From positions 383-64,382 of the forward strand of contig JAPYNU010000073.1 of the NCBI GenBank assembly GCA_028283245.1: 64,000 nt of DNA, given 5' to 3'. The notes beneath the pieces were generated by a model. It was not told the DNA's origin, did not search any database, and was given only the letters and a program-made list of their open reading frames with translations. A program made the translations under genes and the position numbers. Position 1 is the stretch's first letter, and each line of letters starts with the position of its first letter. Source of the DNA: Candidatus Aldehydirespirator catecholifindens. Lineage in GTDB: Bacteria > Actinomycetota > Acidimicrobiia > Acidimicrobiales > Aldehydirespiratoraceae. Positions 8,186-58,538 of this stretch are shown here, in pieces.

Positions 8186-8278
8186 TTTGCCATCTAGAGC
8201 ACGCTGCGACACGCAAAGTCGTAACAACGAAGATCGATAAGTGCAGACGTTGGCTGCGCTTGAGATAGCTTCGCGCTT

Positions 8279-41357: not shown

Positions 41358-42257
41358 TTAGTCGTCGCCGAGACGGAAATGGGGAGTTTCACGGGGCTCG
41401 CGGGTGGAAGCCTCAATGGCATCCTCTTCGTCCAGCAACTTCTCAAACTCGGGATCAGCCTCACTGACAAGCGGTGCCGTCTCTTCATCCAGGTTTTCAT
41501 CAGAGCCATCCCGGCGCCTCCCCGCAGCAGATGAGACGATCTTGCGGGGTTTGGAACCGGGGCCTGACGTTTCTCCGGCAGCCATGGCGGCCTCTTTCGA
41601 GGCTTTATCTTCGGAGAGGGTCTTGTAGGGCAGAATGTCGCCCTTGTAGAGCCAAACTTTCACACCGATCCGGCCGTAAGTGGTGCGGGCCTCGCGGAAG
41701 CCGTAGTCAACATCGGCGCGCAGCGTGTGAAGTGGCACTCTCCCCTCGCGATACCACTCGGTACGAGCCATTTCTGAGCCTCCCAGGCGACCCGAGCACT
41801 GCACCCTGATCCCCAACGCACCAGCTCTTTGGGCGTTCTGCACTGCTCGCTTCATGGCCCGTCGGAAGGCGACCCGGCCTGCGAGCTGGTCAGCTACACC
41901 TTGAGCTATCAGCGCAGCGTCAAGTTCGGGTTGCTTGATTTCTTGGATGTTGAGCTGCACGCGAGGGTTACCGCTGATATCAGTCAGCCCGGCGCGCAAC
42001 CTATCGGCTTCGGCACCCCGGCGGCCGATCACAATGCCTGGACGCGCCGTATGCACATCAACCCGCAAACGGTCACGGGTGCGCTCCACCTCAACACGGC
42101 TTATTGCAGCGTGGGGCAACTCGGTCATCAAAAAATCGCGGATCTTCCAATCTTCGATGACGTTGTTCGCGTAGTCCTTGCGGTCAGCAAACCAGCGGCT
42201 CTTCCATTCGGTGGTGACACCCAAACGGAACCCGTAGGGGTTGACTTTCTGACCCAT
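41358..42257 (-). CDS. rpsC: 30S ribosomal protein S3 with a long charged C-terminal extension
   Basis: [24 protein letters not shown].... 299 aa, and the last ~80 aa are non-core. Confidence 0.95.
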
Positions 42258-42979
42258 CAGACGCTCCCGTCAGCTTTCTTGGACTCTTCACCCGGCTCGG
42301 CGCTGGGTTCTTCGCTCGCACTCTCGTCGGCATCTGCGGTGTCGAACTCCTCAGACTCGACAGTTTCAGCAACAGACTCAACAGCAGGCTCTGCAACACT
42401 GTCATCAGCAACAGACTCAACAGCAGGCTCTGCAACACTGTCATCAGCAACAGACTCAACAGCAGGCTGCTCACCAGTCTGTGCTGAGTCTTCATCGGAC
42501 TGCTGTGCTTGTTGGGCTTGAGCTGCGGCACGCGACTGCGCTACTCGACGCTGGCGCGCCTCGGCGCTGCTGGTGCTGCGCTGAGACTGCACAGCTCTCA
42601 GCCGCTCAAGAGTTTCGGGATCGTAAAGGCTCACGATTACTGTGATGTGGCAGGTTCGCTTGCGGATCCGCGTGGCCCGTCCCCGAGCTCTCGGCCGCCA
42701 ACGCTTTAGTGTCGGGCCTTCATCGGCATAGCACGCCGACACATACAGATCATCAATGTCAAGGCCGTCGTTGTGCTCGGCGTTGGACAGCGCTGACTGC
42801 AACACCTTGTGAATCGGTTGAGCCACATCGCGCTCAGAGAAGGCCAAGATTTCCTGAGCATTCGCACAGCTTTGACCCCGTATCTGATCAAGAACTGCGC
42901 GGGCCTTGTATGCCGAGCATCGCACGTAAGAAGCCCGTGCCCGTGTGCCAGGACGTTCGTTGGTCTTTATGCCGACCAT
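42257..42979 (-). CDS. rplV: 50S ribosomal protein L22 with a ~110-aa acidic, repeat-containing C-terminal extension
   Basis: L22 core [22 protein letters not shown]...ITVIV. The tail contains [33 protein letters not shown]. 240 aa in total. Confidence 0.93.
42367..42468. repeat. ~2.6 x 39-nt tandem repeat inside the rplV 3' extension
   Basis: The unit cagcaacagactcaacagcaggctctgcaacactgtcat occurs at 42367-42405 and 42406-42444, with a partial third copy to 42468. Confidence 0.9.
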
Positions 42980-43261: not shown

Positions 43262-44098
43262 TTACCTCCGTGTGCCGCGCCGGCGCCGGCGACGAACGAT
43301 CAGCTTGTCGGATTCTTTGCGGCGGGCTCGGGTTCGACCCTCGGGCTTGCCCCAAGGCGAAACTGGATGTCGTCCTCCAGAGGACTTGCCCTCGCCACCT
43401 CCCAGTGGGTGGTCTACCGGATTCATGGCCACACCACGCGTCTGGGGGCGGACACCCTTCCAGCGGTTGCGCCCAGCTTTGCCGATCTTGGTGAGTTCAT
43501 GCTCGGAGTTGCCGACTTCGCCGACAGTAGCCCGGCAATCAATCGGTACCCGGCGCATTTCACTGCTCGGCAGGCGCAGAGTGGCGAACTTGCCTTCCTT
43601 GGCGACGAGTTGCACACTGGCCCCAGCACTACGACCCAAACTGCCCCCAGCACCAGGCTTCAACTCGACGCTATGCACGACCGTGCCCACCGGCACATGT
43701 CGCAGAGCCATGGCGTTGCCTGGGCGGACCTCTGCCTGGGGTCCCGACATGAGTCGATCACCAACCTCCAAGCCTTTCGGGGCCAAGATGTAACGCTTCT
43801 CGCCGTCGTGATAGTGCAATAGAGCGATGCGGCAAGTGCGGTTGGGGTCGTACTCAATAGTGGCGACCGTGGCCATGACATTGTCTTTGTTGCGGATGAA
43901 GTCGATCTTGCGGTAGCGCTGCTTGTGACCGCCGCCACGGTGGCGTGAAGTCATGCGTCCGTGGTTGTTGCGCCCGCCGGTGCTGGACTGCTTCACAAGC
44001 AGGCTGCGTTCGGGGTAGGAACGGGTGACCTCCGAGAAGTCTGAAGCAGTCTGGAAGCGGCGTCCAGGGCTGGAAGGCTTGCGTTTGCGAATCGCCAT
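43262..44098 (-). CDS. rplB: 50S ribosomal protein L2
   Basis: 278 aa. [17 protein letters not shown]... and [18 protein letters not shown]. Confidence 0.96.
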
Positions 44099-44391
44099 TA
44101 TTGAGCCTCAAAAAGGTCAATCGTGTCACCGGCAGCCAGAGTGACCAAGGCACGTTTGGTGTCGGGACGCTTGCCCCAAGTGTTGTTGCGACGGTTGTGG
44201 CGACGCTTGCCTTTGCGACGCAAGGTGTTGACCTTTATTACTTCCACATCAAAAAGCGTTTCGACCGCGGCGCGTATCTCTGGCTTGGTGGCCTGAGGTG
44301 CTACCACGAAGGTGTAGACATTGTCACCGAGCAGCGCGTAGCTTTTCTCAGACACCACGGGACGCAGGATCACATCACGATGATCATGCAT
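44098..44391 (-). CDS. rplW: 50S ribosomal protein L23
   Basis: [25 protein letters not shown]. Confidence 0.95.
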
Positions 44392-45127
44392 CGCCTAGAT
44401 CCTGTTCATCTGCTACCTCTGCAGCAACTTCTTCTTCGACTGCTGTATCTGTGGCATCGGACGTATCTGCGGTATCGGGAGTGTCAGCATCGGGCGGCTC
44501 TGAGTCGGCAGCCTCAGAAACTCCCGTGGGCAAAGTCTCAGAGGTGAACACCACCATGTCGCTTCTAACAACGTCATAGGTGTTCAACTCGCGATAATTC
44601 AGGCAATGCACCACAGCAAGATTGCGGAAGCTTTTGTAGGCGTTAGAGTCGCCCTCGCCGAGCACTACCAGCACCTTTCCTTCAGCGCCTATGGCATCAA
44701 GGGCTTTGACAGCAGCGCTGGTGCTGGGCTCATCGAAACGCCAGCGGTCTACCACTATCAAGCGCTCGGAGCGGGCCCGGTCGGAGAGCGCAGAGGCGAG
44801 GGCGAGGCGTTTCATCTTCTTGGGGGTGCGCTGGATGTAGTTGCGAGGCTTTGGTCCATGTGCTGCTCCGCCACCACGCCATTGCGGTGAGCGGATGGAG
44901 CCGTGACGGGCTCTGCCGGTGCCTTTCTGGCGCCACGGCTTTGAGCCGCCACCTGCTACCTCGGCGCGACTTTTGGTGCTGTGTGTGCCAGCCCGACGCG
45001 CTGCCAGTTGTGCAGTCACGACCTGATGCATCACACCAATGTTGGGTTCCACACCGAAAATCGCGTCGTCAAGATCAACCTCACCGACCTTTTTGCCCGC
45101 AGTAGACACCACCTTCAGCGAAACCAT
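44384..45127 (-). CDS. rplD: 50S ribosomal protein L4 with an acidic C-terminal tail
   Basis: [40 protein letters not shown]. Tail: [38 protein letters not shown]. Confidence 0.95.
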
Positions 45128-45130
45128 TGC

Positions 45131-45769
45131 TCAGCGCGCCTTCACTGCGTTGCGCACCACTACAGTGGCACCTTTAGGGCCTGGCACAGCACCCTTCACC
45201 AGCAGCATCTCGGCTTGGGCATCTGCGGAGACCACTTCCAAGTTGAGCGTAGTTACTCGACCACCGCCTGCTCGTCCCGGCAGTTTCTTACCTTTAAACA
45301 CTCTTGAAGGGGTCGCGCACTGGCCGACCGCTCCAGGCTTGCGATGCACTTTGTGAGCACCGTGCCCAGCGGGCTGACCTTTGAAACCGTGACGTTTCAT
45401 TACGCCACTGAAACCTTTGCCTTTCGACACCGCTGTCACATCAATTTTCTCGCCAGAGTCGAGTACGTCCACACCAATTTCTTGACCGACGGCATAGTCG
45501 CTGACATCCTCAAGTCGCAGTTCCAGCAGAGCTTTGCCGGGGGTTACGCCAGCGCGCTGAAAATGGCCAGCTTCGGGCTGAGGCAGCCGGGTGGGGTCAA
45601 CCATCCCGTAAGTAACTTGTATGGCGCTGTAGCCGTCGTTTTCGTTGGTCTTTATTTGCACGACACGACAAGGCAGAACACGCAGCACAGTAACCCCTAC
45701 GACCTGGTTATTTTCGTCCCACACCTGAGTCATACCGACCTTGGTGCCGACGATCGCCTTTGTGGCCAT
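45131..45769 (-). CDS. rplC: 50S ribosomal protein L3
   Basis: ATG 45769 gives MATKAIVGTKVGMTQVWDENNQVV... (212 aa). The track ORF adds 35 non-conserved upstream codons. Confidence 0.94.
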   Translation of the reverse strand: MATKAIVGTKVGMTQVWDENNQVVGVTVLRVLPCRVVQIKTNENDGYSAIQVTYGMVDPTRLPQPEAGHFQRAGVTPGKALLELRLEDVSDYAVGQEIGVDVLDSGEKIDVTAVSKGKGFSGVMKRHGFKGQPAGHGAHKVHRKPGAVGQCATPSRVFKGKKLPGRAGGGRVTTLNLEVVSADAQAEMLLVKGAVPGPKGATVVVRNAVKAR

Positions 45770-46193
45770 GGGTGGTCCTTGCTTCACGCGAACGCTCCGC
45801 TCGGGCTGACCCGGCGGAGCGGTAACTGGGTTGTGCCACACGGTTCCCTCCGATGCGAGGGCCTGTGCGGACATCGATTCGTGATCGCCTCAGAGGTCCC
45901 TGAAGAATTCCGAGGCGAAGCGGGATTATAACGCCTGCCGCTTCTGCCACCAACCCGCACCAATGCAGCACTCAAGCTTCTCAGTGCCTTGCGGAAAGCC
46001 TACGCAACGCGTGGCTGGACTGCTAGCGTAAATTCGCTTCAACCTCGCCCTCGAAAGTTCTACATGAGCAAGATCATCCCAGTGCCCGTCAGGCCAGCAG
46101 AAAAAGTCAGCGACATCGCCCAAGACCGCTGGCACCGACGAGACCGAGCAGAACAGCCGGTGATGGGGACCAGCGAAGCGACAGGCGGCACCA

Positions 46194-47291
46194 GTGCCTG
46201 ACGTGCCGCCGGTGCTGACGCCTTCGGGCACCGTGCTGCTCGAAGCCGCGGTCATGCTCGTCGTTTTTTTGGGCGCTCTTTTCGTGGGTTCGATGCTGGT
46301 GCCGGGACGCCGCATCACAGGGCCTGACCTCGGCAACGGAGAAACGATCACCTACAAGCTCAACGGCCTCGCGCTGTTGCTTCTGATCAGCGGTGCGCTC
46401 GGCATCGCCCAAGCACTCAACGTTTTCTCGATGTCTTCGCTGTACGAGCACTTTTTTGCACTGTTGATAGTCGCCAATATTTTCGCCGTGTCGTTCTCTG
46501 TGTGGTTGTGTCGACGGGGGGCGCGCAAGTGCGCCGAGAAGCCAGGATTTTTGCAGTCCTGTTTCGTGACCTCGGAACGCAATCCCTCCCTGGCGGGCGT
46601 GGACCTTAAGGTGTTCAGCTACCGCCCGTCGCTCATCGGACTGGCACTGCTGAACACCTCGTTCGCGGTGACGCAATACGAAACCTACGACAAGTTGACC
46701 TTGGCGATGGTTCTCTACCAGATCTTTACTTGGATCTATTTGATCAACTACTTCCAGTTTGAAGATGGCATAGTCCACACTTGGGATGTCATCGAAGAGC
46801 GCTTCGGATGGATGCTGGTTTGGGGCGATTACGTGCTGGTGCCGTTCTTCTACTGCATCGCTGGCTGGTGGCTGGTCGATGCCGACGCTGCAGAACTCAA
46901 CCCCTTCGCCGCCGCTGCCATCGTGCTGCTTTACGTTTTCGGTTTCTGGATGTTTCGCGGTGCCAACTACCAGAAGCACCGCTTCAAGCGCGATCCTTCC
47001 GTCACCATTTGGGGACGACCAGTCGAAACGCTCGACGGGCGACTGCTCGTATCGGGGTTCTGGGGAATTGGCCGACATCTCAACTACACAGGCGAAATCT
47101 GCGTCTACATCGCCTTCACGCTCACCGCTGGCTTCACGTCGTTCGTGCCGTTCTTGCTGCCAGCCTGGCTCGCAGGTCTGCTCTGGAACCGTTCCCGCCG
47201 CGACGAGCGGCGCTGCAGCGCCAAATACGGCGAACTGTGGGTGCGCTATAAGCAACGCGTGCCCTATTCGATGCTGCCTTTCGTCTACTGA
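46194..47291 (+). CDS. ERG4/ERG24-family sterol reductase-like polytopic membrane protein (candidate Delta14-sterol reductase)
   Basis: 365 aa, multi-TM. C-terminal family signature LLVSGFWGIGRHLNYTGEICVY...LLWNRSRRDERRCSAKYGELWVRYKQRVPYSMLPFVY. GTG start. The 439-aa antisense ORF is R/H-rich shadow. Confidence 0.8.
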   Translation: MPDVPPVLTPSGTVLLEAAVMLVVFLGALFVGSMLVPGRRITGPDLGNGETITYKLNGLALLLLISGALGIAQALNVFSMSSLYEHFFALLIVANIFAVSFSVWLCRRGARKCAEKPGFLQSCFVTSERNPSLAGVDLKVFSYRPSLIGLALLNTSFAVTQYETYDKLTLAMVLYQIFTWIYLINYFQFEDGIVHTWDVIEERFGWMLVWGDYVLVPFFYCIAGWWLVDADAAELNPFAAAAIVLLYVFGFWMFRGANYQKHRFKRDPSVTIWGRPVETLDGRLLVSGFWGIGRHLNYTGEICVYIAFTLTAGFTSFVPFLLPAWLAGLLWNRSRRDERRCSAKYGELWVRYKQRVPYSMLPFVY

Positions 47292-47399
47292 AGTCCATGA
47301 CGCAACAACTCCATGAAGCGGCGACGGTGAGACGAACGAACGCATGACAAGACGAACCGACGTATGACTAGACGAACGGATAAATGAGGGGTCAAATAG

Positions 47400-48788
47400 A
47401 TGACAGAAGCAACAGTGGCAAACCATAACGGCAGCTCAGCCGCCTCGATCCCCGAACTGTCTGGGGGCAGGCCGCTGATCGGACATCTGCGGGAATTCTT
47501 GAAAGACCCGGTGGGAATGCTCGACCGCTGCTGGCGCGACCACGGCGACCTAGTGCGTTTCCGGCTGGGGACCCGCAAGTTCGTGCTATTCACCGGGCCG
47601 GAAGCCCACGACTGCTATTTCAGGGCGCCTGAGGAGCAGCTTGATGCCAGGGCCGGGTATCAGTTCACGGTTCCCATCTTCGGACGCGGCGTGGCCTACG
47701 ACGTGGAACCCGAGATCATGGCGGAGCAGCTGGGGTTCCTCTATCCGGCTCTGCGTGATGCCTCCATGCGCAGATACGCCCGCATCATGTACGAAGAGAC
47801 AAGCGCGTTCGCCGACACGCTCGGTGAGGATGGGACCATTGATCTGCCGCTCCACATGAACGAGCTCACCGTGAAAATAGCTAGCCGCTGCCTGCTCGGG
47901 CAGGAAGTGCGGGATCAAGTGGATTCGGGATTCGCCGAGGCCTACCACGACTTGGAGGGGGGCATCAACCTCCTCGGCTTCTTCGCTCCCAAGCTGCCTA
48001 TCCCGGCGCACGTCCGGCGCGACAGAGCGCGCCGCAAGATATCGAAGATCCTGTTGGAGGTCATGAGCGAAAGGCGGCGCTGTGGCACGGCCACTGACGA
48101 TTTCATGCAGACGCTCATGGAGGCGCGCTACAACGACGGTCGAACCTTGGACGATGAAGAGGCAACCGGGATACTGGTGACAACCCTTTTCGCGGGCCAG
48201 CACACCAGCGCCGTGCTGGCGACCTGGATCGGCGTTGAGATGTTCCGCGACCACGACTGCGTGACACGAGTTCGCAACGAAATGCAGGAGGTCTACTCCG
48301 AAGATGGTGCCTTGAGCCTCGCGGGACTCAACAAGCAGTCCGCTCTGGGGCGCGTAGTGCGCGAATGCGAGAGGCTGCACCCGCCGCTGATAATACTGAT
48401 CCGCAAAGTGATCGAGCCTTTGCAGTATGCGGGCCACACCGTGCCGTCGGGCACTATGGCGGCTGTGTGTTCGGCGTCTTCGCATCGTTTGCCCCACCTG
48501 TTCTCTGACCCGCATCGCTTCGACCCTGAGCGGTTCGCTGACCCGCGCAACGAGGGCGATCAGCACAAATACGCTCTGATCGGGTTTGGTGGGGGCAAAC
48601 ACCGGTGCATGGGCGAGAAATTCGCCTTGCTGCAACTCAAGGCGATCTGGACGGTGTTGCTTGACCGCTTCGATTTTGAGCTCGACACGGAGTTCCCGGC
48701 CCCCAACTACGGCAGTTGGGTGACTGGCCCCAAGCTACCGTGCCGGGTTCGTTATCGCCGCCGCTCACAAGCAAACACGATCAGCTAA
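47400..48788 (+). CDS. cyp51: Cytochrome P450, CYP51-like (sterol 14-alpha-demethylase family)
   Basis: 462 aa. B'/BC-loop CYP51 signature YQFTVPIFGRGVAYDV, I-helix FAGQHTS, LHPPLIILIR, heme loop FGGGKHRCMGEKFA, C-terminus CRVRYRRR. As I recall the M. tuberculosis CYP51 sequence, this is collinear with it along the whole length. Confidence 0.85.
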   Translation: MTEATVANHNGSSAASIPELSGGRPLIGHLREFLKDPVGMLDRCWRDHGDLVRFRLGTRKFVLFTGPEAHDCYFRAPEEQLDARAGYQFTVPIFGRGVAYDVEPEIMAEQLGFLYPALRDASMRRYARIMYEETSAFADTLGEDGTIDLPLHMNELTVKIASRCLLGQEVRDQVDSGFAEAYHDLEGGINLLGFFAPKLPIPAHVRRDRARRKISKILLEVMSERRRCGTATDDFMQTLMEARYNDGRTLDDEEATGILVTTLFAGQHTSAVLATWIGVEMFRDHDCVTRVRNEMQEVYSEDGALSLAGLNKQSALGRVVRECERLHPPLIILIRKVIEPLQYAGHTVPSGTMAAVCSASSHRLPHLFSDPHRFDPERFADPRNEGDQHKYALIGFGGGKHRCMGEKFALLQLKAIWTVLLDRFDFELDTEFPAPNYGSWVTGPKLPCRVRYRRRSQANTIS

Positions 48789-48857
48789 GAGGCCGAACGA
48801 ACCGCAACAACACTGTCAGCGGAGATGTACTGTCAGCGGAGATGTAATGTCTAGCCA

Positions 48858-50114
48858 GTGCGCGACACACACGATCCAGGCGAGTCTGTCAGATCGGCAG
48901 GCGAAGCAGGCGCAGCCTCTACTGTGCCGTCAGCCGAGGCTGCATCCCCCGAAGAGACTGCTTCATCGCTAACTGCTGACGCATCGCTAGCTACTGAGAA
49001 AATGCCGGGCTGGGTCAAGCGGGCCATCGTCTGGTTCTGGCTCGGAGGGCTGATCGCCTTCTACTTCGTTGATGTGGTAAGTTCGCTGCGGAGCTTGCTC
49101 ACCGTGCTCGTGGTGTCGCTGTTTGCGGCTTTCGCGTTCGAGCCTGCGGTCAACTGGATGGCCGGGCGCGGTATTCGTCGAGGCTTGGCAACAGCCGGAG
49201 TGTTCGTGCTTGTGGCTCTGCTAGCGGCAGGTTTCTCAGCCGTGATCGGAACAGCCCTCGCTACAGAGGTTGATGTCTTGATCGACAACGCCCCCGGCTA
49301 TATCGATGACATTGAGGAATGGGTTAACGACACTTTCAACTCGGATTTTGACTTCGACAGCCTTCGTGATGAGTTCCTTGATGAGGGTGGCGTAGAGAAT
49401 CTCGCTAGCCGCTTCGCCGACGATGTAGTCAACGTGGGTGCCACAGTGGTGAGTTTGCTCTTCCAGCTCTTCACGGTCGCTTTGTTCACCTTTTATCTGC
49501 TGGCCGAGGGCCCCAAGCTGCGCCGCATGATCGGGTCACGTCTAAGCGCTCGCCGCGCCGCCATAGTTACTGAGATCTGGGATTTGTCGATGAACAAGAC
49601 CGGCGGCTACATGTATTCACGCACGATCTTGGCGGTCATCTCGGCTTTTGTGCATTGGGCGGCTTTCGCGCTGTTGGGGGTGCCTTCGCCGGTGGCTTTG
49701 GCCATGTGGGTGGGTGTCGTGTCGCAGTTCATTCCCGCGATTGGCGCTTACGTCGCTGGGGTTTTGCCGGTGCTGGTTGCGCTATTGCATGAGCCAAGAA
49801 CTGGACTGTGGACGCTGGTAGTGATCGTTGCTTACCAGCAACTCGAGAACTACATCTTCTCGCCTCGGATCACGGCGCGCACCATGGAGATACATGTTGC
49901 TCTGGCTTTCGGCTCGGTGATAGCAGGCACCGCGCTGATGGGGATTGTCGGTGCCTTCCTGGCGTTGCCGGTGGCGGCCGTAGCTCAAGCCTTCATCTCC
50001 AGCTGGTTGGATCAGCGCACCGGCCCTGTCGGGCTTGCCGATAACCAATCAGCTGATGACCCATCATCTGAAGCGACACCGCCCGAGCAGACCAGTCCAA
50101 CTGAGTCAAACTGA
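48858..50114 (+). CDS. AI-2E family transporter (PerM/UPF0118)
   Basis: 418 aa, multi-TM. ...LFTFYLLAEGPKLRR... and LLGVPSPVALAMWVGVVSQFIPAIGAYVAG. ATG 49002 (MPGWVKRAI) is an alternative start. Confidence 0.75.
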   Translation: MRDTHDPGESVRSAGEAGAASTVPSAEAASPEETASSLTADASLATEKMPGWVKRAIVWFWLGGLIAFYFVDVVSSLRSLLTVLVVSLFAAFAFEPAVNWMAGRGIRRGLATAGVFVLVALLAAGFSAVIGTALATEVDVLIDNAPGYIDDIEEWVNDTFNSDFDFDSLRDEFLDEGGVENLASRFADDVVNVGATVVSLLFQLFTVALFTFYLLAEGPKLRRMIGSRLSARRAAIVTEIWDLSMNKTGGYMYSRTILAVISAFVHWAAFALLGVPSPVALAMWVGVVSQFIPAIGAYVAGVLPVLVALLHEPRTGLWTLVVIVAYQQLENYIFSPRITARTMEIHVALAFGSVIAGTALMGIVGAFLALPVAAVAQAFISSWLDQRTGPVGLADNQSADDPSSEATPPEQTSPTESN

Positions 50115-50149
50115 GTTAAACCGAGTCAGACAGGCTGCAAACGCAGTAT

Positions 50150-51508
50150 TCACAGATCCCATAGGCAAGACATTGGCAGAGCTGCAATGCGATCTTTAAG
50201 CCTGTGCGGTTGCTGGCCTGTGTAAAGCACAATGCCGATTTCGAAGCGGTCGCCGATTTGGTCACGCAGCCAGGCCAGCGACTTAGCATCAGTAGGCCTT
50301 ACCGTAGCCGAGGCCTTTACCTCAACTGCGATCAGGCGCCCATCGGGGTGCTCTATCAGTAGATCAATCTCACGCCCAAGCGAGTCTCGGTAGTGACAAA
50401 AACGCAACTCTGGGGCCACCGCTTGCGCCTGCCTATGCAGTTCAGAGAACACAAACGATTCGTGCAACTGTCCTCGCTCATGCGTTTCTGGATCGCTGAG
50501 CGTCTCGGCTGCCACACCGAGCATCGCTGCGGCCAGACCCGAATCCGTGACGTGAACTTTCGGCCTGCGTTTAGCGCGTGTTGGAGCGGACGAAGCCCAA
50601 CCATCCAAACGACACACAAGATGAGTCATCTCTAGATACGAGAGATAGTCGGCGGTCGTTTCAATGCTGCCAAACCCCATGTCGCGGTGAAGGTCCTGCA
50701 TGACGAGTTCTCCCGCGGTGCGAGCCGACACTGCACGCAACAGTCGAGGCAGTTCGCTCGAACGCCGTGCTCCGGTCAACTCAACAATGTCACGAGTCAC
50801 CAACGCGTGGACATACGACTGGAACCAGAGTTGCCGGTCGGTGTCCGACAGGCTAAGCACCTCTGGATAGCCACCCCGGCACACTCGCTCGGCATACTGA
50901 AAACGGTCAAGGGGAGCATACGAAGCCCCTAGGAGTTGCTCAAGACATCCCCCAGTGTCGCTAAGTAACTGCGCCAGCAACCCGTCGGATTGACCACATA
51001 TCTCTACCTCCGACAACGGTGCCAACTCAAAGAACACGGCTCGACCAGCAAGAGACTCTGACAGTACCGGAACATGAAGGAAGCCAGCCGAGCCGGTCAG
51101 CAAGAACTGGCCGGGTGACGGATCAGCATCAACGGCCAACTTGATTGCCCTTACTAGATCGTCGCCACCGCGCTGCACCTCGTCGATGACGGTCGGGCGG
51201 TTGCGTCCGCTTATGAAACCCAGCGGATCTTCGCGGGCGAGCTCCACCAGAACTGCCTCGTCAAGGCTCAAAAATGACTGACCAAGAGTCACAGGCTTTC
51301 CAGCAAGAGTCAAAGGCTTTCCAGCAAGAGTCAACGGCTTTCCAGCAAGAGTCAACGGCTTTCCGCTAGCGGCAATCTGGCGCGCCAACGTCGACTTGCC
51401 CGACTGACGGGGGCCCGAAAGCACCACAATCCGAAACGTCTCAAGCGCTCTTCGCAGAACCGGCTCAATCTGGCGCGGAACAATCTTCTGTATCGTCTCT
51501 GGTGGCAC
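50150..51508 (-). CDS. AAA-family ATPase with a C-terminal DUF4143 (restriction-endonuclease-like) domain, carrying an internal GKPLTLA repeat
   Basis: Walker A LSGPRQSGKSTLARQIA, Walker B-like VIDEVQ, LTGSAGF...SESLAGR. C-terminal PD-(D/E)xK-like REIDLLIEHPDGRLIAVEVKAS. Between Walker A and B lies the insert SGKPLTLAGKPLTLAGKPLTLAGKPVTLG. Confidence 0.8.
   Translation of the reverse strand: MPPETIQKIVPRQIEPVLRRALETFRIVVLSGPRQSGKSTLARQIAASGKPLTLAGKPLTLAGKPLTLAGKPVTLGQSFLSLDEAVLVELAREDPLGFISGRNRPTVIDEVQRGGDDLVRAIKLAVDADPSPGQFLLTGSAGFLHVPVLSESLAGRAVFFELAPLSEVEICGQSDGLLAQLLSDTGGCLEQLLGASYAPLDRFQYAERVCRGGYPEVLSLSDTDRQLWFQSYVHALVTRDIVELTGARRSSELPRLLRAVSARTAGELVMQDLHRDMGFGSIETTADYLSYLEMTHLVCRLDGWASSAPTRAKRRPKVHVTDSGLAAAMLGVAAETLSDPETHERGQLHESFVFSELHRQAQAVAPELRFCHYRDSLGREIDLLIEHPDGRLIAVEVKASATVRPTDAKSLAWLRDQIGDRFEIGIVLYTGQQPHRLKDRIAALPMSCLWDL
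51283..51366. repeat. 4 x 21-nt in-frame tandem repeat inside the ATPase gene
   Basis: Units: caagagtcacaggctttccag / caagagtcaaaggctttccag / caagagtcaacggctttccag / caagagtcaacggctttccgc. Confidence 0.92.
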
Positions 51509-51517
51509 AAATCAATG

Positions 51518-51563
51518 CTACCAGTAGTTTTATCAACTGGCTACCAGTAGTTTTATCAACTGG
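51518..51563. repeat. 2 x 23-nt perfect tandem duplication in the AT-rich region upstream of the ATPase gene
   Basis: ctaccagtagttttatcaactgg occurs twice, 10-55 nt upstream of the ATPase start (51508), followed by ctagttataattttgtacattactg. Candidate operator or promoter duplication. Confidence 0.85.
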
Positions 51564-51717
51564 CTAGTTATAATTTTGTACATTACTGATCGGTTGAACA
51601 GGCGGGCTGAATGCTTGCATGTCGACCCCACCGAGCCAGCACGATGCTTGAACTACATATTCACCAACGTGCCTGCCGGGATTTATATGAACCACGACAG
51701 CATGTGGCGGAGGGGTA

Positions 51718-52041
51718 TTAGGTCTGCTGGACTTTCAGTTCAATGTCGACACCCGCAGGCACTTCAAGGCGCTGCAGGGTGTCGACAGTCTTTTTGTTGG
51801 GTTCCAAGATGTCCAGCAGACGCTTGTGAATGTGCATCTCAAAGTGCTCGCGAGAATCTTTATCTTTGAAGGGTGAGCGCACCACCGTGAAACGATGCTT
51901 CTCGGTGGGCAGCGGCACAGGGCCTCGAAACTCGGCCTGGGTGCGCTTCACGGTCTCAACGATTTTCTTGGTGGACTGATCAAGGATCTCATGGTCGTAG
52001 GCCTTGAGCCTGATCCGAACCCTCTGCTTCGCTGCCGCCAC
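51718..52041 (-). CDS. rpsJ: 30S ribosomal protein S10
   Basis: [34 protein letters not shown]...[23 protein letters not shown]. Confidence 0.96.
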
Positions 52042-52081
52042 AAGAACCTCTTCGCTGTCTCGGTGCCCGAATGATCAGGAT

Positions 52082-53269
52082 CTACTTGATGATCTTGATG
52101 ACCGAGCCCGCACCGACAGTGCGGCCTCCTTCACGGATGGCGAAGCGCAGCCCCTCATCCATGGCAATCGGGTTGATCAGATCAACATGCATGACAGTGT
52201 TGTCGCCAGGCATGCACATCTCGGTGCCTTCAGGCAGGTTGATGGTGCCGGTCACATCAGTCGTCCGGAAATAGAACTGTGGCCGATAATTCGAGAAGAA
52301 CGGCTTGTGGCGACCACCCTCCTCTTTGCTCAGCACATACACCTGCGCTTCAAACTCGGTGTGAGGAGTGATGCTCTTGGGTGCAGCCAGAACCTGCCCG
52401 CGCTGAACTTCGTCTTTGTCAACACCACGCAACAACGCGCCGATGTTGTCGCCCGCTTCGCCACGGTCAAGGATCTTGCGGAACATCTCCACGCCGGTGC
52501 AAGTGGTCTCTTGAGTGTTGCGAAGGCCGACAATCTCTACTTTGTTGCCGGTCTCAACCACGCCCTGCTCAACACGTCCAGTGACGACAGTGCCTCGCCC
52601 AGTAATTGAGAACACGTCCTCAATGGGCATCAGGAACGGCTTGTCGATATCACGCTCAGGGGTGGGCACATAGTCATCCACCGCAGCCATCAGTTCCATC
52701 ACCTTTCCGGCTGCGGATTCGTCGCCTTCCAGCGCTTTCAGAGCCGACACTCCAATGACCGGTGTGTCATCGCCAGGGAAGTCGTATTCGTCAAGAAGTT
52801 CACGCACTTCAAGCTCGACCAGTTCGAGGATCTCCTCGTCGTCAACCATGTCCACCTTGTTGAGGGCCACAACAATGCGGGGAACCCCCACTTGGCGTGC
52901 CAACAGCACATGCTCACGAGTCTGAGGCATGGGACCATCCGCAGCCGACACCACCAAAATGGCACCGTCCACTTGGGCGGCACCAGTGATCATGTTCTTG
53001 ATGTAGTCGGCGTGACCCGGCATATCGACATGCGCGTAGTGACGGTTGTCGGTCTCGTATTCGACATGGGCGACATTGATGGTGATGCCGCGCTCACGCT
53101 CTTCGGGGGCGTTGTCGATCTTGTCGAACTCGGTGAATGCGGTGCCTTCCACGCGGTCTGACAGCACCTTGGTGATGGCAGCCGTAAGTGTGGTTTTGCC
53201 GTGGTCAATGTGACCCATAGTCCCCACGTTTACGTGAGGCTTGTTCCGCTCGAACTGCTCCTTGGCCAT
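52082..53269 (-). CDS. tuf: Elongation factor Tu
   Basis: ATG 53269 gives [32 protein letters not shown]... (395 aa). The track ORF has a 61-codon upstream extension. Confidence 0.97.
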
Positions 53270-53312
53270 GGATTTTCCCTCTTGTGGTCTTCGTTGGTTT
53301 AAGGACTTCGGA

Positions 53313-55400
53313 TCACTCGCCGCGTACGCGTGCGACGATCTCCTTTTGCACGTTCGCAGGGGTGGGCTGGTACGAATCGAACTGCATCGTGTACGTGGCC
53401 CGCCCTTGCGTGCGTGATCGCAGGTCGGTACTGTATCCGAACATCTCCGCAAGCGGCACCTGCGCGCTCACCACTTGATTATTGCCGCGTCGTTCGGTGC
53501 CACGCATCTGACCGCGGCGAGCGTTGAGATCACCAACGACATCACCGAGGTAGTCGTCAGGGGTAACGATCTCCACCGCCATCACTGGCTCCAGCAAGAT
53601 CGGCTTGGCTTTGGGTGCCACTTCACGGAACCAGGCACTTCCGGCGATCTTGAAGGCCATCTCTGAAGAGTCCACGTCGTGAGTGCGTCCGTCGGTGAGA
53701 GTGACCTTGACATCAACGGTAGGGAAGCCTGCCAGCACACCGTTGCTCATGGCATCGCGGATGCCTTCATCCACCGGCTTGATGAACTCACGCGGGATAG
53801 CTCCAGCGCGAATCGTGCTCTCAAAAACATACTGTCCGCCGGGGTTGGGTTCGATCGTGGCTGTGACCACAGCGAACTGCCCCGAACCGCCGGTCTGCTT
53901 CTTATGCACGAAAGTGTGACCGGCGACGGTATTGGCGAGAGTCTCTCGGTATGCCACCTGAGGCTTGCCGACATTGGCTTGCACGTTGAACTCACGCAAC
54001 ATGCGGTCCACGAGCACCTCTAGATGCAACTCGCCCATACCGGCGATGATGGTCTGGGCGGTGTCGGCATCGGTGCGCACCCTGAACGTTGGGTCTTCCT
54101 CTGACAGCGCTGTGAGCGCCTTAGACATCTTGTCTTGGTCGGCTTTTGAGCGCGGCTCAACAGCCACATCAATCACTGGTTCGGGAAAATGCAAGTCTTC
54201 CAAAGCCACCTGATGCGCGGGATCACAAAGCGTGTCGCCGGTGCGACAGTCTTTGAGCCCTATTGCGGCAGCAATGTCGCCTGAGGCCACTGAAGTCAGA
54301 TCAACACGGTCGTTAGCGTGCATCTCTAGGATGCGTCCGATGCGTTCGGTGCGGCCGGTGCGAGTGTTCAGAACTTGTGCACCTTTTTCCAAAGTGCCGC
54401 TGTAGACACGGAAGTAGGTGAGCTTGCCGACATGAGGGTCGGTAGCGATTTTGAAAGCCAGCGCAGTTAGGGGCTCAGAGTCGTCGGCTGAGCGAGAAAC
54501 TGCGACACCGCTGCGAGGTTCGCTGCCGGTCACATCGGGCACGTCACTGGGCGACGGCAGATAGTCAATGATTGCGTCAAGCAGCGCCTGCACTCCCTTG
54601 TTCTTAAACGACGAACCGTTGAGCACAGGCACCAAGCCGCCCGTGAGAGTTCCGGCACGCACAGCTTCAGCAACCTCCGCTGAGCTGATCTCTTCGTCCT
54701 CAAGAAACTTCTCAAGCAGGCTCTCGTCATAGTCGGACAAGGTCTCAAGAAGGTCATGACGGTAGAGCTCGGCCTCTTCGAGCATGTCGTCAGGGACATC
54801 AGTCTCGGTCCAGGTAACCCCAAGGTCTTCACCTGACCAGATACGCGCACGCATTCTTACCAAGTCGATAATGCCCCGGTAGTCGGATTCGACACCGATC
54901 GGAAGCTGCAGCACTGCGATCTTGGTGGTCAGCCGTTCACGGATCGAGTCCAGCACGAAATGGAAGTCGGCACCGGTGCGGTCCATCTTGTTGACGAAAC
55001 ACAGCCGCGGAACGCGGTAACGATCGGCTTGACGCCACACCGTCTCACTCTGGGGTTCCACGCCAGCAACGCCATCGAACACGGCGACCGCACCATCGAG
55101 CACACGCAGCGAACGCTCAACTTCCACCGTGAAGTCAACATGGCCAGGAGTGTCAATGATGTTGATGCGATGATCACGCCAAATGCAGTGCGTGGCAGCC
55201 GAAGTGATGGTGATGCCGCGCTCTTGCTCTTGGGCCATCCAGTCCATAGTGGCTGCACCGTCATGGACCTCACCGATCTTGTAGTTGCGGCCCGTGTAAT
55301 ACAGGATCCGCTCGGTGGTGGTGGTTTTACCTGCATCAATGTGAGCCATGATGCCGATGTTGCGGGTTTTGGACAGGGGATATCGTTCGTTCGCGGGCAT
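53313..55400 (-). CDS. fusA: Elongation factor G
   Basis: ATG 55400 gives [37 protein letters not shown]... (695 aa). Confidence 0.97.
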
Positions 55401-55590
55401 TGCGGTTCTTCCTGGGATTTTGGTAGGGGCGTTGCGGTTGGGATCCGGCTCACGCATCCCGCTCGCTTAGCCTGCGAGCCGCGTGAGGCGAGGCGGCGGA
55501 TTCTGAAAGTCGGAGAGGGTTGGTCAGTCGGGCGGTGTCACGAAGAGCGGCATCGTCATGGCAGCCGAACTAGCCACCAACAAACCGCAA

Positions 55591-55608
55591 CCGGGCAGCA
55601 ATGCCCGG
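55591..55608 (-). terminator. Short GC hairpin after the PIN-like gene, upstream of fusA
   Basis: ccgggca gcaa tgcccgg (7-bp stem, 4-nt loop), followed on the minus strand by ttgcggtttgttgg. Function is inferred only. Confidence 0.35.
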
Positions 55609-55656
55609 CCACAGATTATTCTACGCTACCGGCTCGCCAACTATGTGCAATACCCC

Positions 55657-55962
55657 TTAAGCAGATAAGCGGTCTAGTTGTTGGGGCTCGACATGACTAA
55701 CGCTGAGATGCTGTGTCCGACGCATCAGATTGGCGACAAGCGCGGGCCAGGGCAGGAATGGTCGGATCTGACGATGCTCAATCCAGTCAGCCTCTATTAC
55801 AGAGGTAAGTTCCTTGTGTAGGTGAAGGCCTTGCTTGAGTTCATCGACTACCGATTTAGGAACGACAGCCGTGTGGCCTGCTAAGATTGTCTTGAGTGCG
55901 TCCAAGCGCTGGGCACGGGCAAAGTGGCTGAGCGGGCCTGTATCGAATACAAAAACTGGCAT
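55657..55962 (-). CDS. PIN-like (COG2405/DUF3368-type) nuclease domain protein, apparently C-terminally truncated
   Basis: MPVFVFDTGPLSHFARAQRLDALKTILAGHTAVVPKSVVDELKQG...ADWIEH matches the N-terminal half of this PIN family as I recall it. The expected GEA...DD(x)AR second half is absent in all three frames. 101 aa. Confidence 0.45.
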   Translation of the reverse strand: MPVFVFDTGPLSHFARAQRLDALKTILAGHTAVVPKSVVDELKQGLHLHKELTSVIEADWIEHRQIRPFLPWPALVANLMRRTQHLSVSHVEPQQLDRLSA

Positions 55963-55971
55963 CTTGAGCAG

Positions 55972-57075
55972 TCACAACACAAAAGACCAAGCAGCTTCGA
56001 TAGGGAGAGTGGGGAGTTCGGGTAGGTCGTCCTCACTCCAAGTACCCAACAGGAGATCTAGCGCTCGAGCTGCAGTGATCTCCTCACCGGTGTAGGCAGC
56101 GAGAACCGCCTTGATGTAGCGATTCGGCAACTCTGGCGGAACAAGATCAGTAGGAACGACTAGTGCGTGCTCCACGATGTCGGCACGGCGAGTGCGGGTT
56201 ACGCGCACCTCATTGGCCTCTGCAGAAGACATAAGACCCAAATCGGTCAGCCGCTGTGCAAGCGTAGACATGTCCACCCGGAAGTGGCTCGCAGTCAAGA
56301 CAGCCTTCGTGCGGACAGGCTCGTCGCGCCGCCAACAGGACTGCAAAGCCGCCGCAGGTAGTAGAAGTGCCCGAGCGAAACGGTCGATCAGAGACTCATT
56401 GCGGGTGGCATCGAAATCGGCCACGTTCCAGTCGGTTGCGTATTCGTCAGCGAATACGTAGTGACCGAGTTCATGCGCGAGAGTCAGGCGGCGTCGACCT
56501 AAGGCACGGCTGCCGTTGACCACAGCTACCCCACCGCTGTCGAGCAGTACTGTGGCACCGTCTGCACCATGCTCGCCCAACTCAAGAGAGAAGACCAGCA
56601 GACCGATGTCAGCGGCTCGTTCGGTCAAGCGCAGAGCTGGCTCGGACCCTTCATAGCCGAGCAGCGTCCGTGCCTGCTTTGCAGCTTCTTCGGCCTCCTC
56701 AGAGGTATCGGGAACATGCAGTTCGGGAGTGGCAGGGAGATCAAAACCCGTGTCGATGCTCTGAAGGAACATGGTCTCGCGGGCGACACGCTCCGTCATC
56801 CGGTCGATTTGAGGGCTAGGCTCACCAGGTGCGGCGGCGCTGCGGCGCGACACCACCGCATGCGGAGCATCATCGAAGAGCCACTCGATGCGCATCTCTA
56901 GGACATCCGCCAATCGGGCAAGTTCCATAGCCTCAACCCGCCGTGCGCCCGTCTCAATCTTGGCCAGCGCACTGCGATGCAGTCCCGACCGCGCTGCACA
57001 CTCTTGCTGTGTGAGGCCCGCATCACGCCGAGCGGATGCGATCCTATTCCCCAACTTGCGGGCACTAACCGTCAT
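55972..57075 (-). CDS. XRE-family HTH fused to an ImmA/IrrE (COG2856) zinc metallopeptidase domain
   Basis: 367 aa. N-terminal HTH LGNRIASARRDAGLTQQECAARSGLHRSALAKIETG and the HExxH motif in LTLAHELGHYVFADEY. Its stop lies 9 nt before the PIN-like start. Confidence 0.85.
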   Translation of the reverse strand: MTVSARKLGNRIASARRDAGLTQQECAARSGLHRSALAKIETGARRVEAMELARLADVLEMRIEWLFDDAPHAVVSRRSAAAPGEPSPQIDRMTERVARETMFLQSIDTGFDLPATPELHVPDTSEEAEEAAKQARTLLGYEGSEPALRLTERAADIGLLVFSLELGEHGADGATVLLDSGGVAVVNGSRALGRRRLTLAHELGHYVFADEYATDWNVADFDATRNESLIDRFARALLLPAAALQSCWRRDEPVRTKAVLTASHFRVDMSTLAQRLTDLGLMSSAEANEVRVTRTRRADIVEHALVVPTDLVPPELPNRYIKAVLAAYTGEEITAARALDLLLGTWSEDDLPELPTLPIEAAWSFVL

Positions 57076-57179
57076 GTGTTCGATTATAGAACAATCCCAC
57101 GGCGGGCGTTCAAGCTTCGCTCTCAGGTCCGAATGGGTGATGGTGGGACAGTGAATGAAGTATGTCCCTGGGACGTGTG

Positions 57180-57667
57180 TTACCAGCGATAGTGAGCGAA
57201 GGCCTTGTTGGAATCAGCCATCTTCTGCAGGTCTTCTCGGCGCTTCACTGAAGCACCGAGGCCGTTGCCAGCGTCAAGCAACTCGCTGGCAAGCCGCTCG
57301 GCCATAGTGCGTTCACGGCGGCCTCTGGCGTAAGTAACGATCCAGCGGCAGCGGATCGCCAGCGTGGTGGCTCTGCGGGGCTTCACCTCAACAGGCACCT
57401 GATAAGTGGCACCACCAACACGACGGCTACGCACCTCCAGTTGCGGACGCACATTCTCAACGGCTCGTTTGAGAGTAGATACCGGCTCGGCACCAGTCTT
57501 TGTCTCAACAATTTCCATGGCATCATAACGATGCGCTCAGCGCAGGTGCGCTTGCCACGCTGCAAGACTTTGTTGATCACTTGAGTGACCAGCAGCGATT
57601 GATAGATCGGATCGGATTGAAGTTCGCGGCGCGCTGCTGACGGCGAGATCGGTGTTGATGCACGCAA
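57180..57667 (-). pseudogene. rpsG: 30S ribosomal protein S7 gene carrying three lesions (probable pseudogene, or an assembly error plus variation)
   Basis: The N-terminal part, ..[38 protein letters not shown], is in one frame (track ORF 57383..57667). The C-terminal part, (A)[45 protein letters not shown]...NKAFAHYRW, is in another (57180..57518). One extra T at 57527-57528 (gtt atg atg cc -> gtt tat gat gcc) would restore ...IVYDAMEIV.... The conserved MPRK N-terminus is missing, and only a TTG at 57667 is available, directly after a TGA. A perfect 6-nt tandem duplication, cagcgg x2 at 57343-57354, inserts two residues into the conserved A-x-R-W-(I/L)-V motif, giving AIRCRWIV. Confidence 0.8.
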
Positions 57668-57671
57668 TCAG

Positions 57672-58235
57672 ATGCACGCAGGACACACGCAGAGACACAA
57701 TTCAAACACCACTGACAGCGAGCCTGGTGTTGCAGGTGGGGGTTGGGTGGCTGACATCACGCTGGTCGCGCACGTTGGCGACGCCACCGGTGAACTAATC
57801 ACTGAACTCTCAGACGGATCACGGCTACCTGCAGCGGTGCTCGAAGAACTGTCATGCAATGCGCGATGGACAGGATTGGTGTATGACCGTTGCGGAGACG
57901 CGATCTGGCGCAGCAGATCAAGACGCACAGTCACCAACAGCCAATGGCAAACACTTCTCACCGACTACGGAGGCTGCTTCCACTGCGGGACACCACCAGC
58001 CATATGTCAAGCCCATCACATCATCCCCTATTCACAAGGCGGAGAAACCAGCGTCAACAACAACCCGCACCAGAATCAGAACCGCCACCCCACCGCACGC
58101 GATCACCGCCCAGAACCGAGAAGAGCAGAGCAAACCGGACCAGAACCAAAGCCAGAAACCCAGCCCGGTCACACTGTGGTGAAGACTGCACTCAAGCCGG
58201 AGTGTCAATCAGGCCACTTCTGTAATCAACGGTGA
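57672..58235 (+). pseudogene. 5'-truncated, 3'-degenerate HNH endonuclease remnant (actinobacterial DUF222/13E12-type)
   Basis: ...LSDGSRLPAAVLEELSCNARWTGLVYDRCGDAIWRSRSRRTVTNSQWQTLLTDYGGCFHCGTPPAICQAHHIIPYSQGGETSVNN is the C-terminal HNH core. The usual ~250-aa N-terminal domain is absent. The sequence after SVNN degenerates into P/Q/N/R-rich text in all frames. Confidence 0.65.
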
Positions 58236-58297
58236 AGACCAGTCACGCTCTAGTGAACACTGCCCTCCCCAATAAGCAGATAACTAGAAATGGGCTC

Positions 58298-58357
58298 GGC
58301 ATAACCGACATTGGCATAACCGACATTGGCATAACCGACATTGGCATAACCGACATT
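58298..58357. repeat. 4 perfect tandem copies of a 15-mer (ggcataaccgacatt), non-coding
   Basis: Read directly. Units at 58298, 58313, 58328 and 58343. Lies between the HNH remnant and the 3' end of hipA. Confidence 0.95.
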
Positions 58358-58538
58358 TATGTGCTCGTCTCGCAAGCTGCTCCCCTCCCCCATCGTCAGG
58401 CGAACGGACCGTTGTGGTCCTGTAGGCCGGAAGGAACCCGCGACAGGACACAGCAGTCGGGCAACACAACCAGCGAAACGCAAACTCTCCACTGGCCATC
58501 AGCCCCACCCCACCCAACACTCAAACGCGAAGAGCCGG

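Follow-up and report, generated by a model that had tools for sequence, protein, structure and literature searches.

A putative C14 sterol module lying apart from the other sterol genes of an uncultured Acidimicrobiaceae bacterium

What does a pair of sterol-processing genes do when no other sterol gene lies near it? The window we analyzed, a 64,000-nucleotide (nt) stretch of contig JAPYNU010000073.1 from Candidatus Aldehydirespirator catecholifindens, raises this question, since it carries side by side a gene for an ERG24-type sterol reductase and a gene for a cytochrome P450 of the CYP51 family. CYP51 strips the 14-alpha-methyl group from sterols and leaves a Delta14 double bond, which a Delta14-reductase of the ERG24/TM7SF2 family reduces next. 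An initial annotation had read the pair as a demethylate-then-reduce module and had proposed either that it belongs to a dispersed bacterial sterol pathway or that it acts on acquired sterols. We conclude that the pair is likely to supply the C14 steps of a bacterial pathway by which an uncultured member of the Acidimicrobiaceae makes sterols de novo. The pair and its spacer are as follows.

46194-47291, + strand: ERG4/ERG24-family sterol reductase, putative C14 (delta14) type; GTG start, 365 amino acids (aa)
47292-47399, + strand: ERG24-CYP51 spacer, 108 nt; ribosome-binding site GAGGGG, 8 nt ahead of the CYP51 start codon
47400-48788, + strand: CYP51-type cytochrome P450, putative sterol 14-alpha-demethylase; ATG start, 462 aa, soluble

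Both open reading frames (ORFs) lie on the + strand at exactly the positions first described, co-directional and 108 nt apart, and every motif that had been quoted was found in the translations of the P450 and the membrane protein.

The claim that the P450 is a CYP51 was borne out by comparison with proteins in the PDB. Approximately the top 57 matches were all CYP51 enzymes (353 to 188 bits), drawn from bacteria, protists, animals, and fungi, and the highest-ranking P450 of any other kind, 3dbg, scored 147 bits. The best match was the Methylococcus capsulatus CYP51 (E 1.7e-104, 39.5% identity); the Mycobacterium tuberculosis CYP51 matched at approximately 1e-90, and protist and human enzymes were also among the matches. 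The protein matched the Pfam family p450 (PF00067) at 184 bits, fell below every NCBIfam equivalog cutoff by a wide margin, and is approximately 40% identical to characterized CYP51 enzymes. It carries the motifs YQFTVPIFGRGVAYDV, FAGQHTS, LHPPLIILIR, FGGGKHRCMG, and CRVRYRRR. What we take to be the CYP51 signature comprises YxxF/LxxPxFGxxVxY/FD in the B' helix and B'C loop and GQHTS, with a conserved His, in helix I; here, YQFTVPIFGRGVAYDV and FAGQHTS align with the same motifs of the M. capsulatus enzyme, and FGGGKHRCMG fits the heme Cys-ligand motif FxxGxxxCxG. No ferredoxin domain is fused to this CYP51, which ends at residue 462, and no ferredoxin adjoins it, its neighbors being the ERG24-type reductase and an AI-2E transporter.

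The upstream protein had been placed in the ERG4/ERG24 family by its C-terminal signature motifs, GFWGIGRHLNYTGE and RRDERRCSAKYGELWVRYKQRVPY, and profile searches agreed: it matched ERG4_ERG24 (PF01222) at 233 bits, against a cutoff of 27, and DUF1295 (PF06966) at 26.6 bits. The ERG4_ERG24 match spans positions 75 to 432 of the 432 in the profile. MaSR1 (4quv), a delta14-sterol reductase, was the top PDB sequence match (E 3.9e-65), and it was also the sole significant fold match of a predicted AlphaFold (AF2) model (36 homologues; predicted local distance difference test [pLDDT] 76), with a template modeling (TM) score of 0.75 and no other PDB fold reaching E<0.001. In MaSR1, Tyr241 is catalytic, Asp363 is putatively so, and Asn359 and Arg395 bind NADPH (PMC12489058, PMC4951196). 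Y241, N359, and R395 correspond to Y182, N297, and R333 of the reductase, where they are conserved, and they are invariant in its clade. NCBIfam has no model for the reductase, and NCBI labels homologues of the two proteins "DUF1295 domain-containing protein" (reductase) and "cytochrome P450" (CYP51). Our putative assignment of the reductase to the delta14 (C14) type is supported indirectly, by MaSR1 as its top characterized match, by the position of the gene directly before CYP51 in the operons described below, and by the KEGG assignment of Kelly et al.

The two genes are likely co-transcribed as one mRNA, because the spacer contains no terminator-like site and the GAGGGG ribosome-binding site stands ahead of the CYP51 ATG. 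The spacer also holds three tandem repeats of approximately 20 nt at 47330-47387, and it is repeat-rich in two sister species as well. With the orthologous L006 locus as reference (sister species, 88% nt identity), the ratio of nonsynonymous to synonymous substitution rates (dN/dS) was 0.20 for the reductase, computed against a 92% orthologue, and 0.14 for CYP51. These values are in the same range as those of the neighboring rplD and AI-2E genes and indicate purifying selection. Neither ORF is disrupted in any of three species of the lineage. The two-step module is very likely functional, and the proposal that it performs consecutive post-cyclisation steps holds as far as sequence can carry it.

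If the pair is part of a de novo pathway, the enzymes that make its substrate should be encoded somewhere. Squalene epoxidase (SE), oxidosqualene cyclase (OSC), and ferredoxin are absent from the window, as initially stated: tblastn searches with SE, OSC, SdmA/B, SQS, and SMT were negative, and no real gene of the 64 kb contains a ferredoxin-type cysteine motif. The idea of a dispersed pathway gained its support outside the window. A metagenome-assembled genome (MAG) of the same species, GCA_028283225.1, encodes ERG24 and CYP51 proteins 100% identical to those of the window on contig JAPYNV010000111.1 and an OSC of 662 aa (P0344) on contig JAPYNV010000142.1, whose GC content, 58.0%, is the same as that of the window. 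A partial ORF upstream of this OSC corresponds to the C-terminal 168 aa of SE (74% identity, E 5e-80), and the SE-OSC genes adjoin the sdh operon. Run SRR10406107 contains both the pair locus and the SE-OSC locus. In a second MAG, GCA_026709125.1 (65% GC), the pair occupies the rpsJ-rplC gap of one contig, while SdmB-SdmA-SE-OSC lies beside the sdh operon on another.

A sister species carries both loci on long contigs. Its ERG24, CYP51, and OSC cluster members each lie on contigs (ERZ25072448 ctg25121 and ERZ25070844 ctg10136) of exactly 2,818,185 base pairs (bp) and 2,834,047 bp, with the pair at approximately 1.83 to 1.85 Mb of the 2,818,185-bp contig and SE-OSC at approximately 0.89 to 0.91 Mb of the 2,834,047-bp contig; contig names ending in "_c" presumably denote circular sequences. 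Matching of contigs by equal length also holds for operon-type genomes (e.g., 2,529,447 bp and 2,106,183 bp). In this sister species (L018; ERZ25070844 ctg10136, 885,786-907,726), SE-OSC follows nadD/rsfS with no SdmBA or sdh nearby, and two genes for GT2 glycosyltransferases of approximately 1,000 aa lie approximately 3 kb downstream on the opposite strand. The context of SE-OSC differs between the sister species and the window species, and the family has seen more than one rearrangement of its sterol genes.

The analysis directly shows what the genes are, that they are under purifying selection, the operons in which relatives carry them, the presence of SE-OSC (in part with SdmBA) in the same genomes, and the ancestral AI-2E gap described below; what the enzymes do, their substrate, transcription as one unit, the redox partner, and the final product are inferred. 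In the pathway that we propose, SE and OSC encoded elsewhere in the genome would yield a protosterol. The OSC has the motif PVTDC, with Val two residues before the catalytic Asp, which we take to be a lanosterol-type signature and which hints that the protosterol may be lanosterol. The soluble CYP51 would remove the 14-alpha-methyl group to give a delta8,14-diene, and the polytopic ERG24-type enzyme would then protonate C15 and deliver hydride from NADPH to C14, thereby reducing the delta14 bond. SdmA and SdmB, also encoded elsewhere, would remove a C4 methyl.

Homologues of the pair suggest where the module came from. There are thousands of them in metagenomes, 60 to 77% identical, in Gammaproteobacteria, Alphaproteobacteria, Nitrospirales, Binatia, Bacteroidota, and others, a distribution typical of horizontal spread. 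The nearest relatives outside the Acidimicrobiaceae lineage, at 74% identity (P0003, P0007, P0018), lie inside SdmB-SdmA-ERG24-CYP51-[SE-OSC] operons, and a Thiotrichales homologue at 70% identity lies in the same type of operon. The gene order in these operons is SdmB (3-beta-hydroxysteroid dehydrogenase-like), SdmA (Rieske), ERG24, CYP51, SE, and OSC; fusion of SE with OSC is common, and SMT or SQS is a frequent neighbor.

We also surveyed OSC loci: a single genome for each GTDB species was scanned with an alignment of OSC sequences, and the 80 best loci were classified by the 10 kb on either side. None of the species representatives scanned was identical to the window species, the best reaching 82%. 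ERG24-CYP51 stood directly upstream of SE-OSC, in the layout of the six-gene operon, at 45 of the 80 loci, in uncultured bacterial MAGs from many phyla, many of them with sponge-derived bin names. SE-OSC stood alone at 29 loci, which included all Dehalococcoidia and all Acidimicrobiales/Acidimicrobiia other than L025. CYP51 occurred without ERG24 at four loci, and SdmBA-SE-OSC occurred without C14 genes at two. The arrangement SdmB-SdmA-CYP51-SE-OSC, with no ERG24 between SdmA and CYP51, was seen at L035, L043, L102, and L104, whose hosts are Ca. Multivorans, Thermoanaerobaculia, and two Pseudomonadales MAGs. For these four, the C14 reductase is either elsewhere in the genome or replaced. Most relatives carry all six genes as one operon; in the Acidimicrobiaceae lineage of the window this operon is split, with ERG24-CYP51 apart from the other sterol genes.

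The pair now lies within a 5.9-kb island bounded by rplC and rpsJ, whose other features are as follows.

45131-45769, - strand: rplC (ribosomal protein L3), left border; NCBIfam TIGR03625, 270 bits; 212 aa in the identical contig L002
45770-46193, no strand: divergent intergenic region between rplC and ERG24-CYP51, delimited by the gene coordinates
46064-46201, + strand: upstream ORF, 45 aa, hydrophilic; its TGA stop overlaps the ERG24 GTG start (GTGCCTGA)
48858-50114, + strand: AI-2E family transporter; PF01594, 211 bits; same direction as CYP51, which ends 69 nt before it
50150-51508, - strand: AAA_14/DUF4143 ATPase (Pfam), island accessory gene; present in all three lineage species examined
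51718-52041, - strand: rpsJ (ribosomal protein S10), right border; placed in the window from a PF00338 match on L002, the identical contig

Sister species have an extra metallo-beta-lactamase-fold gene in the same island. A reverse-strand ORF at 45926-46351 that overlaps the ERG24 start was rejected as rpsJ, because its translation is not S10-like and the real rpsJ is at 51718-52041. The island is also rich in short tandem repeats: in addition to the 3 x 20 nt of the ERG24-CYP51 spacer (47330-47387), there are 2.4 x 17 nt between CYP51 and the AI-2E gene (48812-48851), 2.7 x 23 nt between the DUF4143 ATPase gene and rpsJ (51517-51577), and 3.9 x 21 nt, encoding 7-aa repeats, inside the AAA domain of the ATPase (51283-51364).

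The history of this site can be read from 75 metagenomic relatives of the window L3 that also show S10. The rpsJ and rplC genes normally lie next to each other, and the S10-L3 gap is 62 nt or less in 63 of the 75. The closest relatives, marine Acidimicrobiia with L3 68 to 75% identical, all have the order tuf-rpsJ-AI-2E-rplC, with AI-2E on the opposite strand, a gap of 1.5 to 5.7 kb between rpsJ and rplC (loci L107-L121), and no sterol genes. AI-2E therefore split rpsJ from rplC first, and in this clade a separate promoter must accordingly serve rplC together with the remaining genes of the S10 operon. ERG24-CYP51, detached from its operon, arrived later, in the lineage of the window and two sister species, between rplC and AI-2E in the pre-existing gap, where it is transcribed divergently from rplC. 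The alternative of a recent mobile-element insertion was rejected: we found no notable flanking direct or inverted repeats of such an insertion, a scan of protein-coding genes of the island turned up no integrase or transposase, and the AI-2E gap is old.

The divergent region at 45770-46193 must hold promoters for both rplC and ERG24-CYP51. A scan for the sigma-70 consensus returned no sites there, which is uninformative for an actinobacterium, and an Rfam scan of 44000-56500 for ribosomal leaders and riboswitches gave no match at E<=1. The upstream ORF in this region is kept in three species at 45 to 48 aa. It meets ERG24 in a (A/G)TGCCTGA overlap, which is also what links sdmA with ERG24 in the L007 and L105 six-gene operons, and the two junctions are 78% identical over 32 nt (E 0.009). 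A tblastn search with full-length SdmA gave nothing convincing, the resemblance being confined to the last approximately 32 nt and the overlap. This is a weak hint that the ORF may be a relic of the 3' end of sdmA, which would place the operon breakpoint there; it could also be a translational-coupling leader or a chance ORF.

The C14 module sits in a divergent promoter region shared with rplC, within the str/S10 super-operon, and the co-directional gene for the AI-2E-family permease directly follows it. It strikes us as improbable that the relocation was an adaptive rewiring as opposed to a neutral reshuffling; in that case, sterol tailoring might be coupled to growth-rate-controlled ribosomal expression, the permease might have been co-opted for sterol export or trafficking to the sponge host, and the conserved 20-nt repeats of the spacer would be a regulatory element specific to the lineage.

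The finding that SE and OSC are encoded away from the pair raises the potential that the pair is a stand-alone cassette, modifying sterols, such as 14-methyl sterols, obtained from the host sponge or from neighbors, with no de novo synthesis. No other sterol gene lies within 64 kb, an AI-2E-family transporter stands directly downstream of CYP51, and Mycobacteriales have a CYP51-reductase pair and yet make no sterols (PMC13277303). However, same-species and sister-species MAGs encode SE and OSC, and one of these MAGs also encodes SdmA and SdmB, so an endogenous substrate is available and the use of acquired sterols is unnecessary. The adjacency of AI-2E is historical, since this gene held the site before the sterol genes arrived, and the closest homologues of the pair sit in complete biosynthetic operons. 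We therefore consider it unlikely that the module depends on acquired sterols.

Another unlikely alternative is that the product fed by the pair is not a membrane sterol but a specialized triterpenoid, such as a sarasinoside-type 30-norlanostane saponin. Among public sequences, the sponge-symbiont ERG24-CYP51-LSS clusters are best matched by a Melophlus symbiont cluster that has been proposed to make a sarasinoside (Kelly et al., PMC9531527), and the two large GT2 genes of the sister species lie close to its SE-OSC. Those GT2 genes, however, are on the opposite strand and have no counterpart at the syntenic locus in the window species, and the window has no glycosyltransferase or other tailoring gene beside the pair. 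The SdmAB genes for C4 demethylation and, in relatives, SMT point instead to ordinary sterol tailoring. We consider the triterpenoid explanation slightly less probable still than a dependence on acquired sterols.

Several observations weigh against our reading of the pair as the C14 module of a de novo pathway. The link between the window and OSC comes from a same-species MAG (98.9% nt identity) and from sister-species contigs of equal length, not from one continuous sequence. The search of the genome for sterol partners that the initial annotation had recommended recovered SE and OSC (same-species MAG) and SdmAB (second MAG), but neither a redox partner for the P450 (ferredoxin or reductase) nor squalene synthase was located for this genome. 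CYP51 could have its own promoter inside the repeat-containing spacer. The delta14 role of the 365-aa reductase clade and 14-demethylation by this CYP51 clade are both putative. The putative catalytic Asp363 of MaSR1 is replaced by Glu301 in the reductase (window approximately 47094-47096), and the first 55 to 60 residues of MaSR1, or about one helix of the ten-transmembrane MaSR1 fold, whose NADPH pocket lies in the C-terminal half, are absent. The first helix appears to be missing because the alignment begins at MaSR1 residue 80 and the Pfam match at profile position 75. The Asp-to-Glu change is, on its face, conservative, and all 36 members of the 365-aa clade that were sampled, some of them in complete sterol operons, have Glu at this position. 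The short N-terminus is likewise clade-wide, all members being approximately 365 aa (the 36 sampled included), and it is not a local truncation. A frameshift was rejected as its cause, because the upstream frame is the hydrophilic 45-aa ORF with no transmembrane helix and the whole clade has the same length.

It is very unlikely that the pair is a functionless operon remnant, or that its proteins were recruited to a non-sterol substrate, the P450 not being a 14-demethylase or the membrane protein resembling DUF1295 or isoprenylcysteine methyltransferase (ICMT): although the pair is detached from the operon, its reductase has the short N-terminus and Glu for Asp363, its annotations at NCBI are generic, and its CYP51 is only approximately 40% identical to characterized enzymes, three species keep the ORFs undisrupted and dN/dS is 0.14 to 0.20, the reductase scores far better against ERG4_ERG24 than against DUF1295 (233 and 26.6 bits), both of its peculiarities are common to all 36 clade members, some in complete sterol operons, and the CYP51 has all signature motifs and a clear score gap to other P450s.

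The host of the module is an actinobacterium, as had been deduced from the window. Proteins 88 to 94% identical to those of the pair are named "Acidimicrobiaceae bacterium" at NCBI, and the window shows actinobacterial housekeeping synteny. It is a core chromosomal region, with mcm/meaB, glpX, pcrA, guaA, groEL, tsaD/B, alr, and glmM, followed by truA, the ribosomal-protein cluster, fusA, and tuf. Identical or nearly identical contigs occur in MAG GCA_028283225.1, in JGI metagenomes 3300009883/87, and in runs SRR10406113/07. The bin names of relatives (CAR, RHO, IRC, SB, ROBB21) are those of reef-sponge MAG sets, and the host is probably a sponge symbiont, a sponge origin being suggested by these relatives; a literature search turned up no paper on the run or assembly accessions.

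Other parts of the window hold features unrelated to sterols. Upstream of fusA, at 55972-59792, are a helix-turn-helix (HTH)/Peptidase_M78 (IrrE-like) gene and a HipA-family kinase toxin gene; in a 99%-identical strain (L001, 16428-19377), the same place holds an N6_N4 DNA methyltransferase and a ResIII helicase instead. This position beside the str operon varies between strains and is an accessory or defense site. Ribosomal proteins L22 (227 to 284 aa; window 42257-42979, - strand) and L4 (247 to 325 aa; window 44384-45127, - strand) are unusually long and vary in length between sister species (comparison loci L006 5864-6718 and L019 7910-8887), and L4 has a partial match, under the cutoff, to the NCBIfam "sunset domain variant" model. 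Three large ORFs on the - strand, among the housekeeping genes of the window, had no Pfam match at E<=1e-4: 9477-11717 (746 aa), 5860-6996 (378 aa), and 7109-8296 (395 aa).

What the locus adds is modest, and it reveals no new enzyme, pathway, or mechanism. Three elements are new: in these Acidimicrobiaceae the C14 module is separated from SE-OSC and SdmBA; it landed in the S10 ribosomal cluster, in an older gap that contains AI-2E; and its reductase shows the clade-wide Asp-to-Glu change and a shorter N-terminus. Sterol synthesis by bacteria matters for the reading of sterane biomarkers, including the debate over sponges and 24-isopropylcholestane, and for the origin of the eukaryotic pathway. 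Here, a probably sponge-associated actinobacterium has an apparently complete core pathway (SE, OSC, CYP51, and C14 reductase, with SdmAB in a relative) in a split operon. Surveys that count only contiguous ERG24-CYP51-LSS will therefore under-call sterol producers such as these Acidimicrobiaceae.

How does the pair compare with systems that are already known? Work from the Welander laboratory reportedly covers bacterial CYP51, ERG24, and SdmAB. The same genes are treated by Hoshino and Gaucher in 2021 (PMC8237579), who discuss the SdmAB C4 demethylation of Lee et al. 2018. The closest published parallel is that of Kelly et al. (2022, Microbiome 10:164; PMC9531527), who reported, for 115 of 537 MAGs from Ircinia sponges, ERG24-CYP51-LSS "clusters of steroid genes." Those clusters occur in 11 classes, Acidimicrobiia among them, with evidence of horizontal transfer; their genes were annotated as K00222-type delta14-reductase, CYP51, and LSS and found to be under purifying selection, with omega values of 0.13, 0.26, and 0.17, the first two of which compare with 0.20 and 0.14 for the window pair. 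The pair and the sponge-symbiont clusters (TM7SF2/ERG24-CYP51-LSS/ERG7) share their gene families, the order and orientation of ERG24 and then CYP51, and hosts that are uncultured bacteria associated with sponges, probably so for the window pair. They differ in that the CYP51 of the window is followed by AI-2E and not by LSS, so the three genes are not contiguous; SE-OSC, accompanied by SdmBA in a sister species, lies separately by the sdh operon, and the pair occupies the gap between rpsJ and rplC. The initial annotation had presented the linkage of CYP51 to a reductase as informative in itself, but linkage of ERG24 and CYP51, with or without LSS, had been published in 2022, sponge Acidimicrobiia included, and the window pair is therefore a split-layout member of a class already described.

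Set beside the SdmB-SdmA-ERG24-CYP51-SE-OSC(-SMT) operon, the window holds a two-gene fragment whose proteins are 60 to 74% identical to their counterparts and which retains the (A/G)TGCCTGA overlap before ERG24; the spacer, put at approximately 8 to 20 nt or 10 to 80 nt in the operons, has expanded to 108 nt with tandem repeats here. Compared with MaSR1 of Methylotuvimicrobium alcaliphilum (PDB 4QUV; TM 0.75), the reductase is 34 to 35% identical and keeps Tyr241 and the N359/R395 NADPH pocket, but its N-terminus is shorter by approximately 60 residues and Asp363 is replaced by Glu.

The most instructive comparison is with the CYP51-ferredoxin and 8,14-Bsr module of Methylococcaceae and Mycobacteriales. 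Both systems co-localize a bacterial CYP51 with a reductase that acts, or here would act, on the delta8,14 demethylation product, and the M. capsulatus CYP51 is the best PDB match of the window P450. However, 8,14-Bsr is a soluble protein of the NTF2 fold, unrelated to the polytopic ERG4/ERG24 fold of the window reductase; no ferredoxin is fused or adjacent here; and the expected product is delta8 here and delta8(14) there. Lee, Giner, and Welander (2026, PMC13277303) place the CYP51 enzymes of Mycobacteriales and methanotrophs, ferredoxin-linked and accompanied by an NTF2-type 8,14-reductase, in a separate clade. The debated actinobacterial CYP51 that the initial annotation invoked, ferredoxin-linked and NTF2-paired in mycobacteria and streptomycetes, is therefore not what the window holds (PMC13277303). 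The term "actinobacterial CYP51" thus covers two unrelated situations, a mycobacterial type with ferredoxin and 8,14-Bsr and a horizontally spread, ERG24-linked type to which the window pair belongs.

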